DNA from: a virus
Taxonomy: Duplodnaviria; Heunggongvirae; Uroviricota; Caudoviricetes
IMG/VR virus record: IMGVR_UViG_2671180651_000010
DNA length: 12,474 bases
Direction: 5' to 3' (one strand)
A program made the position numbers. This document shows, one piece after another, positions 1 to 2,693 of this stretch. Numbering within the stretch: the first letter of the stretch is position 1; the number at the start of each line of letters is the position of its first letter.

Positions 1-2693
1 AGTCTCCAGGATTTCCGGGGCGGTTCATTAGTGAATGCTTTTGCTTGATCTCAGTTTCAGTATTAATATCCATTTTTTATAAGCGTCGACGGCCTCACGA
101 AACATCTTTTCATCGCCAATAAAAGTGGCGATAGTGAATTTAGTCTGGATAGCCATAATTGTTTGATCCATTTTTTGGGACTCCTGGCTGATTAAGTATG
201 TCGATAAGGCGTTTCCATCCGTCACGTAATTTACGGGTGATTCGTTCAAGTAAAGATTCGGAAGGGCAGCCAGCAACAGGCCACCCTGCAATGGCATATT
301 GCATGGTGTGCTCCTTATTTATACATAACGAAAAACGCCTCGAGTGAAGCGTAATTGGTATGCGGTAACGCCGCGCTCAGGCGGCCTTGATAGTCATATC
401 ATCTGAATCAAATATTCCTGATGTATCGATATCGGTAATTCTTATTCCTTCACTACCATCCATTGGAGGCCATCCTTCCTGNNNNNNNNNNNNNNNNNNN
501 NNNNNNNNNNNNNNNNNNNNNAATGATGTATTTTTTGATGTTTGACATCTGTTCATATCCTCACAGATAAAAAATCGCCCTCATCTTGGAGGGCAAAGAA
601 GATTTCCAATAATCAGAACAAGTCGGCTCCTGTTTAGTTACGAGCGACATTGCTCCGTGTATTCACTCGTTGGAATGAATACACAGCGCTGTGTTTATTC
701 TGTTGTTTGCGTGAAAATGAAATCCGCCTGAGCGGGTTATGACCACTTTTTGTTTGGGTTTCGTTGGTGAGCGTGGTTTACAGGATTATTTGATATACCC
801 CATAACTCTGACTCGCTTATCTCTACACGAGAGAAAGACCTGCTTTCTTTCAGTTCTTTTATAAACCTAGAACCTAAGATGACATCTATTGTACCAGAAA
901 GTTCTTGTAAAAGATCTATGTTTTTTCTGAGGAAGAAAATATCTTCTTTATATTTAATTTTTACATAGAATTTATTCTGTATTTTTAATATATCAAAGCA
1001 TGGCAGATATCTATATCCCTCATATTTTCGCCACTGCTTAACAATTATAACATCTTTTTCATTTACTGCATTAATCAGCCCAAGACCAAGTACAGGTATG
1101 AATATTCTATTGTCTGCCGAAAGCGTACAATTATCACCACCAGGCAAATATGTATAAATCATGTCGGAATTTTTATACGCATCAACGAATGCACGTAAGA
1201 AGCGTACATATTTTTGCCATCCGTTTATACCGAATTTACCATATAAGTATTCTTTATTTGTTAGAAGAAAACTATTTGTATCAGGATCCTTATCTACAGA
1301 CCTGTCGATAAGATCTCCAACTACGTTTACAAAGTCAAAGACAGAGTTTAATAAGAACAATTGTCTTTCAGTAGGGCGAATTTCAATTATGTAGCCAGGA
1401 TGAAGACGATATTGCATCTGCTTACGAAGTATACCGAACGCTTGGGTCCGAGCATCTGAAAGCAACTTCTTGTCGCCATCGCCGTGAGCATTGTTTCTAA
1501 TAAAACTGATATAATTTGCTAATTTTTCAGCCTCTTTTTTGTGTTTTTTTCGCTCTGATGCTGAGTCTATTGGTTTTGGTATGGACTTGTAATCAATCTT
1601 CTTCATTACGTACCTCATGCCAATGGAATGGATTCCCCTTTAACCTTTTGTCTTCCTTGACAAGTTATACCGAACTCACCTGGCTTGCTATACCAAACTC
1701 GATGATTCTTGCGCTCAATACGTTGCAGGTTGCTTTCAATCTGTTCGTGGTATTCAGCCAGCACCGTAAGGTCTATCGGATTCAGTGCGCTTTCTACTCG
1801 TGATTTCGGTTTGCGATTCAGCGAGAGAATAGGGCGGTTAACTGGTTTAGCGCTTACCCCAACCAACAGGGGATTTGCTGCTTTCCATTGAGCCTGTTTC
1901 TCTGCGCGACGTTCGCGGCGGCGTGTTTGTGCATCCATCTGGATTCTCCTGTCAGTTAGCTTTGGTTGTGTGTGGGAGTCGTAGTCCTGAACGAAAACAC
2001 CCCGCAATGGCACATTGGCAGCTAATCCGGATTCGCACTTCCGGCCAATGCTTCGTTTCGTATCACACACACCAAAGCCTTCTGCTTTGAATGCTGCCCT
2101 TCTTCAGGGCTTAATTTTTAAGAGCCTCACCTTCAATGGTGGTCAGTGCGTCCTGCTGATGGCTTAAAATTACAAGGAAGATTGTATGTTGTAAACAAGA
2201 AATATTGTAAAAAAGGGCGTGAAAAACAAACTCCATTGTTTTTAAACGGAAAATAGTTTGTTTTTTTGTTATCGAGATTGAGGTGGGGATTACTGATTGC
2301 AGGTTCCGACTACATCACCAACAAAGGATTTGGTTGATGTAAGTTGTTGCATACCTGGGATGTTCATTACTTTGGAGTAAAGAGCTTTTTTGTCTGTAGT
2401 GATTGACCAAGTTTCAACGGTTATGCCTCCTCCAGACTGGTATTCTCCTACCATAGTGTTCGATGACAAAGCAGTGTATTTCATCTCTGGATAGACGCCA
2501 GAAACTGATTCATAAACTGATGATTTATCGCCATTTATTGTTACGTTGAAAACGGAATCTTCCGTGCTGTCTTTTGTAAACTCGTAACGATCGCCATTCA
2601 TTGCCCCGTACCCGTGCAGGTTTGTGACAATCCAGCATTCAGAATTGGCGCTGGTAGTTAAGAGTATTGAGAGTAGCGCCGCAATCCTGATCA

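Follow-up and report, generated by a model that had tools for sequence, protein, structure and literature searches.

What does the gene that follows the antiterminator gene N in a phage 434-like early region do? The gene lies in a 12,474-nucleotide stretch of DNA (the window hereafter) from the IMG/VR virus record IMGVR_UViG_2671180651_000010, in which 28-481 and 522-7700 match classical phage 434 (OL657226) at 99.9-100% identity. A sequence-only reading had found no motif in its product, had assigned it to the position of the lambda genes sieB and ral, and had proposed an accessory exclusion, abortive-infection or anti-defence function. I argue here that the product would be a "long Nun", that is, a Nun-type arrest factor in which the arginine-rich targeting motif (ARM) has been replaced by a TnpB-like domain. 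By analogy with Nun, this seems on balance the best account of the gene, and long Nun is probably a new, differently targeted transcription-arresting phage-exclusion factor.

The gene and its start are laid out as follows.

737..1606, minus strand: long-Nun coding sequence, 289 aa plus stop (open reading frame list, phrog_12139, CPT_434_48); an upstream ATG at 1618-1616 is the alternative start and gives 293 aa.
1613..1618, minus strand: translation-start region, comprising the first ATG (1618-1616), the N stop TGA (1617-1615) and a GAGG Shine-Dalgarno sequence (1616-1613).
1615..1941, minus strand: lambda-type antiterminator N gene, immediately upstream (Pfam N36, E=1.8e-26; 434 annotation).

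Most of what the sequence-only reading had seen in the DNA itself was found again. The open reading frame of about 290 aa that it gave at 737-1618 exists, on the minus strand, and has 293 aa when counted from the first ATG at 1618-1616; the junction with N reads GGCATGAGGTACGTAATGAAG on that strand, with the first ATG and the N stop overlapping as ATGA, and a second ATG (1606-1604) does lie 6 nt past the GAGG at 1616-1613. Translation likely starts at 1606, because the resulting 289-aa product has the length of phrog_12139 (function unknown; E=8e-206, 289/289 positions, covering residues 5-293 of the 293-aa form) and of the phage 434 GenBank coding sequence CPT_434_48. The latter differs from the window protein by I230K only, and the 434 record annotates a ribosome-binding site at this same place. 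The gene is AT-rich as claimed (GC 0.346, with 0.303 at third codon positions, N having 0.489 and the whole window 0.440), and so are all its homologues (GC 0.33-0.38). The claim that it is undescribed holds in part: in the GenBank record of 434 the product is already called "Nun C-terminal peptide-containing protein", but the gene is not discussed in the 434 genome announcement (PMC9119081), literature searches gave no paper that discusses it, and its RefSeq product name in E. coli genomes is "hypothetical protein". Full-length copies are present in 83 of 5426 complete E. coli genomes (~1.5%), always on the chromosome and always adjoining an "antitermination protein N".

A motif can in fact be recognised, and it is the C-terminus of Nun.

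740..781, minus strand: Nun-type arrest peptide, residues 276-289, VNHAHQRNPNKKWS, at the extreme C-terminus (identity to Nun 96-109; phrog_5632).

In the alignment, residues 276-289 are identical to residues 96-109 of HK75 and HK022 Nun. The last 20 residues match phrog_5632 ("Nun-like"), and phmmer against PDB sequences returned Nun as the sole match (6ALG chain N, residues 83-109, E=9.5e-4). Both kinds of match to Nun, PHROG and PDB, are confined to the last 20-27 residues. Cryo-electron microscopy has shown that Nun residues 87-109 are the only ordered part of Nun and hold all known arrest determinants: the peptide threads into the active-site cleft of RNA polymerase, cross-links the polymerase to the nucleic acids and stops translocation (PMC5386594). 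N97, H98 and H100 touch the RNA, the DNA template and the rudder of beta'; R102 and the carboxylate at the C-terminus form a pair; K106, K107 and W108 are placed between the hybrid and downstream DNA; H93 and R94 contact the upstream DNA duplex, R94A weakening binding; and N103, a non-contacting control residue, makes no important contact (PMC5386594). Nun lacking its last 13 residues no longer binds RNA polymerase; its N-terminal ARM binds the boxB RNA of nut; at high concentration Nun alone arrests elongation complexes without nut or Nus factors; its over-expression is toxic, and it arrests host transcription non-specifically (PMC5386594). The window protein has N97, H98, H100, R102, K106, K107 and W108 (Nun numbering), as well as the free C-terminus.

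Is this tail a working peptide or a remnant of recombination? The question arises from the DNA around it.

600..775, minus strand: DNA block about 96% like the HK75 nun 3' end and the DNA downstream of it (megablast, DNA alignment), starting at codon H278.

The identity between 434 and HK75 nun DNA starts abruptly at the H278 codon and runs for about 175 nt, passing the stop, and the non-coding DNA 3' of the stop within this block is common to many lambdoid phages. The tail could then be a relic, or a generic basic C-terminus, of a protein whose function lies in its WED/REC domain alone (see below); the protein would then bind DNA or RNA as an accessory, defence or anti-defence factor, like the relatives associated with BREX operons. 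Besides the coincidence of the 434 tail with the shared DNA block, such a reading could draw on the absence of Nun H93 and R94 and on distant relatives that pair the same core with an unrelated tail, GGLPSLGKRR. Because of that coincidence, the argument against a relic has to rest on divergent homologues. Very few long-Nun relatives were found, by word-indexed search and by exhaustive profile search. The close ones, which were retrieved by homology and not through the tail pattern, are P0003 (68% identity), P0032 and P0005 (46-48%), P0004 (42%) and P0006 (36%), with the fragments P0007 and P0008, and all end in V-N-H-A-H-x-R-x-x-x-K-K-W(-S). Down to 36% identity, the residues critical in Nun from N97 onward are invariant, while substitutions occur at Q101, N103 (the non-contacting residue), P104 and N105. 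Between 434 and P0004, 7 of 11 conserved tail codons show synonymous differences, and the DNA past the stop is unrelated. Mean pairwise identity among ten distinct long-form sequences is 0.85, the highest value, in the tail (276-289), 0.53 in the core (66-220), 0.50 over the whole protein, 0.37 in the N-terminal hairpin (16-65) and, lowest of all segments, 0.22 in the linker (267-275); four of the ten came from a scan for the tail pattern, which inflates the tail value somewhat, and the set found by homology has the same pattern. From the region identities, the synonymous codon turnover and the placing of the substitutions, the tail is under purifying selection on precisely those residues that matter in Nun. 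It also stands at the very end of the protein in every case, which is what the R102-carboxylate ring of Nun demands. The mosaic-junction relic, which was the interpretation first considered, was rejected in view of the divergent homologues with a conserved tail, and I regard a relic or generic tail as quite improbable.

A second line of evidence comes from the place of the gene in the pL operon, which the following elements delimit.

2096..2110, minus strand: nutL boxB hairpin GCCCTGAAGAAGGGC, lambda type (sequence; nutL is annotated here in 434).
724..736, minus strand: GC hairpin CCCGCTCAGGCGG right after the stop, with a degraded T-run (downstream-region comparison).
575..596, minus strand: intrinsic terminator ending the N/long-Nun immediate-early segment (terminator scan; annotated in 434).

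Since the boxB at 2096-2110 is of the lambda type, the phage uses lambda-type N/nut. The other long-form genes are followed within 5-50 nt by a strong intrinsic terminator and by nothing else that is conserved downstream; the hairpin at 724-736, with its degraded T-run, is the counterpart of the terminator found after every other long-Nun gene. The immediate-early part of the pL transcript, which is made before antitermination, thus includes the long-Nun gene. In 434, L005 and L006 it comes directly after N. L003 has no N gene, and there the long-Nun gene follows putL just as nun does in HK022 and HK75 (order cI, pL, putL, gene, terminator); by alignment, the L003 putL and putR (L003:2885-3000 and L003:1634-1790, minus strand) are almost identical to those of HK75, although the L003 leader as a whole is not exceptionally structured (z=-0.09). 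The early region of L003 is P22-like, with Arf, CIII and P22_Y8K6 genes combined with HK022-type put antitermination and the long-Nun gene.

What had been called a sieB/ral slot is therefore better called a nun slot, given that relatives occupy the exact position of nun in HK022-type phages. A sieB-like abortive-infection gene, a ral-like restriction-alleviation gene or an anti-defence gene would fit the place after N, the AT-rich composition and the accessory-gene distribution among E. coli genomes. However, scans of the long-Nun protein and its distant relatives with Pfam, NCBIfam and PADLOC gave no match, the SieB and Ral models included; PHROG gave none to SieB or Ral either, and PADLOC-DB v2 at E<=1 matched no defence protein. 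The positive matches are to Nun and to a TnpB-like fold instead, and I consider a gene of the sieB, ral or anti-defence kind very improbable. Of the earlier proposal, the idea of an accessory, horizontally mobile exclusion gene gains from the Nun tail and the nun-slot position, and its abortive-infection, ral-like and anti-defence versions find no support.

Two further points concern expression. No convincing separate or internal promoter for the long-Nun gene was found in the window; Nun itself is produced under repression, at ~100 nM. The stretch from hex to pL showed no leftward terminator-like site, so that read-through from pRM towards N and the long-Nun gene may occur. The hex gene (2290-2766, minus strand; phrog_2651) lies downstream of the 434 repressor; its longest open reading frame overlaps cI, and according to the 434 record the start codon published for hex was wrong.

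If the tail is that of Nun, what precedes it is not. An AlphaFold2 (AF2) model built from a 31-sequence family alignment had a mean predicted local distance difference test (pLDDT) score of 81.5 and a predicted template modelling score (pTM) of 0.71; it replaced an earlier AlphaFold model made with a 4-sequence alignment (pLDDT 43), which was unusable. The model and the family alignment delimit these parts.

1412..1561, minus strand: basic two-helix hairpin SERKKHKKEAEKLANY..., residues 16-65 (AF2 model; only in phage long forms).
950..1396, minus strand: predicted TnpB/Cas12-like WED/REC core, residues 71-219, with no RuvC or zinc-finger after it.
830..946, minus strand: long helix after the core, residues 221-259 (AF2 model).
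809-856, minus strand: conserved motif KESRSFSRVEISES, residues 251-266, spanning the end of that helix and the next residues.
782..808, minus strand: predicted disordered linker, residues 267-275 (pLDDT <50; 22% identity).

In the model, helices 16-38 and 43-65 (pLDDT >90) are followed by one strand (71-77), a helical stretch (80-145), a group of strands (152-219), the long helix 221-259 and a disordered end, 260-289. The hairpin is among the most variable parts (37%) and is missing from the distant relatives with the GGLPSLGKRR tail (GKRR-tail relatives hereafter), whereas the motif at 251-266 is invariant or nearly so in the close family and can still be made out in the distant relatives as S..Y.RVDF. 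With Foldseek, neither PDB nor BFVD yielded a match at E<=1e-3, and TM-scores were low; the Foldseek results are used as an enrichment pattern only, in which nine of the ten best PDB matches are Cas12 proteins and the best viral matches are giant-virus "transposases". A comparison of the family profile with ISDra2 TnpB by hhalign (TnpB sequence checked against 8bf8_A) gave a weak alignment of 26 residues, 71-96 onto TnpB 6-31 (E=0.056), which is the register expected were the core to begin where TnpB begins. The family profile found nothing relevant among PDB sequences, and Pfam gave no OrfB-type match. As modelled, residues ~70-220 have a TnpB/Cas12-like WED/REC fold without nuclease, WED/REC being a module that binds nucleic acids, and homology to TnpB is plausible. 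RuvC and the zinc-finger/TNB domain are missing from the model: past the WED strands there are only the helix, the linker and the tail, up to the end at 289. No conserved guide-RNA-like element was found downstream of the family genes, where only the intrinsic terminator is conserved and Rfam has nothing. An N-terminal arginine-rich boxB-binding motif homologous to that of Nun is not present, the Lys-rich helix 16-38 not being conserved as an ARM. A loose "AEK.A.Y" likeness to lambda N in that basic N-terminal helix was considered as an ARM and dropped, since it is not conserved in homologues.

Relatives of the core also occur outside the pL operons of lambdoid phages. The exhaustive search yielded proteins of 213-326 aa (P0010-P0037) that share profile positions ~73-225 with long Nun. 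They keep the motif S-x-x-(Y/F)-x-R-V-(D/E), end in ...GGLPSLGKRR, and have neither the N-terminal hairpin nor the Nun peptide; they are unnamed in Pfam, NCBIfam and PADLOC, and a literature search for the GKRR tail motif gave nothing. One subgroup lies between BrxC and PglX of a BREX operon in four independent contigs, PADLOC confirming BrxA, BrxB, BrxC and PglX at the locus, and one further relative stands beside DISARM-like genes. Part of the core family thus lives in defence loci, and the presence of distant core relatives in BREX operons or near defence genes is counted in favour of long Nun as an exclusion factor. The BREX variant concerned (L007, L131, L132 and L135) has an arrangement of its own: a WYL regulator lies upstream, the conserved 276-288-aa relative (at about 8001-8867 in L131) comes before two unnamed proteins (376 and 423 aa), a member of the HSP70 family and another PglX-like methyltransferase, and PADLOC names none of the three extra proteins.

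The Nun tail is found on other carriers as well. Viral contigs were scanned for N-H-A-H-x-R-x3-K-K-W, a pattern that demands the conserved tail residues, which gave at least 120 loci. The counts below are descriptive only, since they include many near-identical prophages and the ARM classifier is crude; put sites were called by blastn-short, as a strict put pattern under-called them. Among the matches listed, the tail is carried by classical Nun (109-117 aa), by the ~290-aa long form, by an 88-aa form with a lambda-N-like ARM, by 92-105-aa forms with an NSxNRR-type ARM and by other short forms, and the genes upstream of the main forms are these.

Classical Nun: phi21-type N in 34 of 46, no open reading frame (put type) in 7.
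NSxNRR-type ARM plus tail: P22-type N in 7 of 10.
Long form: lambda-type N in 19 of 27, another N-like gene in 3, put type in 1.

Most of these classical nun genes follow an N gene, not put, and none of the listed proteins that are expected to bind lambda boxB (classical Nun or lambda-ARM form) stands after a lambda-type N. The same N-then-Nun arrangement is found in PA28 (GenBank). The pattern fits a general module, in which the phage's own N is followed by a Nun-type gene with another target and then by a terminator, and suggests as a general rule an immediate-early N/Nun pair with self-avoidance. It also gives the reason why ordinary Nun is not open to a phage that, like 434, has a lambda-type N.

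Among individual loci, L016 has a phi21-type N followed by classical Nun, L014 a P22-type N followed by an ARM plus tail, and L040 is likewise of the N-then-Nun type. The first ~55 residues of the 88-aa proteins resemble lambda N (MDAQARRREKRKEKQEEWK...), and the 92-105-aa proteins have arginine-rich motifs of the NSRNRRRE or NSKNRRYK type. The varied short forms are exemplified by L040, L043, L054, L055 and L095, by L014, L056 and L060, and by L033, where two tail-bearing open reading frames (79 and 88 aa) lie ~300 nt apart. L039, L062, L067 and L106 have, after a lambda-type N, a 226-aa long form that starts MQYRLHPGY... (residue 64) and lacks the basic hairpin; it may be a deletion variant or a pseudogene.

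These pairings bear on whose transcription is the target. The tail could engage RNA polymerase and the protein nevertheless act on the host or on the phage's own transcription, as a shut-off factor or as a brake or timer of pL; in a host shut-off variant, arrest would spare phage complexes modified by N or put. The gene is co-expressed with N in the immediate-early segment before the first terminator, has no separate promoter that could be found, and occurs with both N-type and put-type antitermination systems, all of which would suit such a role, as would the non-specific arrest of host transcription by Nun and its toxicity at high level. On the other hand, the slot and the architecture parallel those of Nun-type genes, whose ARMs are heterotypic to the resident N and hence point to competitor targeting; a variable hairpin and linker beside a constant tail look like diversifying specificity; and the resistance of N- or put-modified complexes to the tail is a supposition. 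Action on host or self is the main rival to long Nun as an exclusion factor, a minority possibility but one to be taken seriously.

Long Nun as an exclusion factor would then work as follows. The protein comprises five parts in order: the basic hairpin, the WED/REC core without nuclease, the motif-bearing long helix, the disordered tether and the 14-residue peptide. Its gene is part of the immediate-early pL segment and is transcribed there between N and the first terminator. The folded domain would recruit the protein to certain elongation complexes, most probably those of heterotypic phages or mobile elements that compete with this phage, which the tail would then arrest as the Nun peptide does. 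I infer arrest of RNA polymerase by this protein, targeting by the WED/REC domain and exclusion of other phages or mobile elements from the combination of tail, tether, fold, slot and heterotypic N pairing. A bolder form, which I think rather unlikely, is that the WED/REC core has kept the capacity of its TnpB-like relatives to read sequence, that it recognises a specific DNA or RNA sequence, perhaps with a small guide RNA supplied in trans, and that it delivers the Nun peptide to the polymerases which transcribe this sequence. Long Nun would in that case be a natural sequence-programmable RNA-polymerase roadblock, and the combination of a WED/REC scaffold with a short effector tail would be modular, the GGLPSLGKRR tail of the BREX relatives docking into another machine.

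Several observations weigh against long Nun as the interpretation. Clear similarity to Nun is limited to 14 residues, and for 434 alone, as said, the tail looks like a mosaic junction, which makes a recombination relic possible. In the alignment, 434 has N and N where Nun has H93 and R94, and these positions vary across the family; since the two residues are not conserved and R94A weakens Nun binding, the tail may bind RNA polymerase more weakly than that of Nun. Kinship with TnpB is supported by the fold and by nothing significant in sequence profiles. The search for an internal promoter gave no convincing one, so production of the protein may be limited to infection or induction, which suits prophage exclusion less well. 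Finally, two of the distant relatives lie in other, non-defence contexts.

Nun is the textbook RNA-polymerase-arresting excluder and has been treated as a curiosity of HK022. The results suggest that lambdoid phages make wide use of its arrest peptide as a portable "warhead" in a dedicated slot next to N, that classical phage 434 and ~1.5% of complete E. coli genomes carry a nuclease-less, TnpB/Cas12-like targeting version of it, and that some BREX defence operons contain this same WED/REC-like domain as a conserved insert. If long Nun does arrest transcription, phage exclusion at the level of transcription would gain a new principle of targeting, and the TnpB fold one more route of domestication; self-avoidance between N and Nun, if it is indeed a rule, would help to explain the mosaic early regions of lambdoid phages. 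The experimental system is an easy one, as 434, lambda hybrids and Nun-resistant rpoC alleles such as beta' R322H, D264G and D329G already exist. To my knowledge, and within the literature searched, the selection on the tail, the nuclease-less TnpB-like core, the presence of the gene in the nun slot of N-type as well as put-type phages, the diverse tail proteins paired with heterotypic N genes and the BREX-embedded relatives are described here for the first time.

The rest of the window holds a few features apart from this subject. A run of 40 N at 482-521, which is masked sequence, interrupts an ea10/ssb-like gene (DUF2528, open reading frame 377-556, minus strand), and its flanks align to 434 with a matching gap. 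Between a NinI-like phosphatase gene and Q, an AT-rich gene (8834-9793, minus strand; Pfam E=6.8e-40) encodes an LpxR-family outer-membrane protein (lipid A 3'-O-deacylase family), a moron of possible relevance to virulence or surface remodelling. Just downstream of Q (10184-10957), an AT-rich gene at 11127-11885 (plus strand) encodes a predicted multi-pass membrane protein of 252 aa with no Pfam match. Near the right end, 12140-12344 (plus strand) has a sub-threshold Rfam match to the small RNA STnc100 (41.4 bits versus a gathering score of 47, E=6e-6).

How does long Nun compare with known systems? With HK022 Nun (6ALG chain N; phrog_5632) it shares the identical C-terminal 14 residues on a disordered, tethered tail, and a place where the pL operon begins, between putL or N and a terminator, in an AT-rich, accessory-like gene. 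Nun, however, has 109-112 aa and long Nun 289 aa, long Nun has a ~260-aa folded region with a TnpB-like core in lieu of the boxB-binding ARM, and its phage itself uses the lambda N/nut system that Nun attacks. Lambda N is its neighbour in the same immediate-early transcript and, like Nun, is tethered and largely disordered, and the C-terminal part of N also enters RNA polymerase; but the long-Nun tail has no similarity to the N C-terminus, N antiterminates whereas the Nun tail arrests, and the long form has a large folded domain. With the RNA-guided nucleases TnpB and Cas12 and their nuclease-dead derivatives (TldR, exapted Cas12f) long Nun shares, in the model, the fold of the WED and REC domains. 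It differs from them in lacking RuvC and the zinc-finger/TNB domain entirely rather than having them inactivated, in having no significant sequence similarity and no conserved adjacent non-coding guide element, and in its presumed effector, which would be a peptide inserted into RNA polymerase and not a steric block of a promoter. The GKRR-tail relatives also have the WED/REC-like core, and in them too the S.x(Y/F).RV(D/E) motif precedes a basic tail that is short and strictly C-terminal; they have no hairpin, end in GGLPSLGKRR, and are chromosomal or defence-island genes, whereas long Nun belongs to the pL operon of lambdoid phages.

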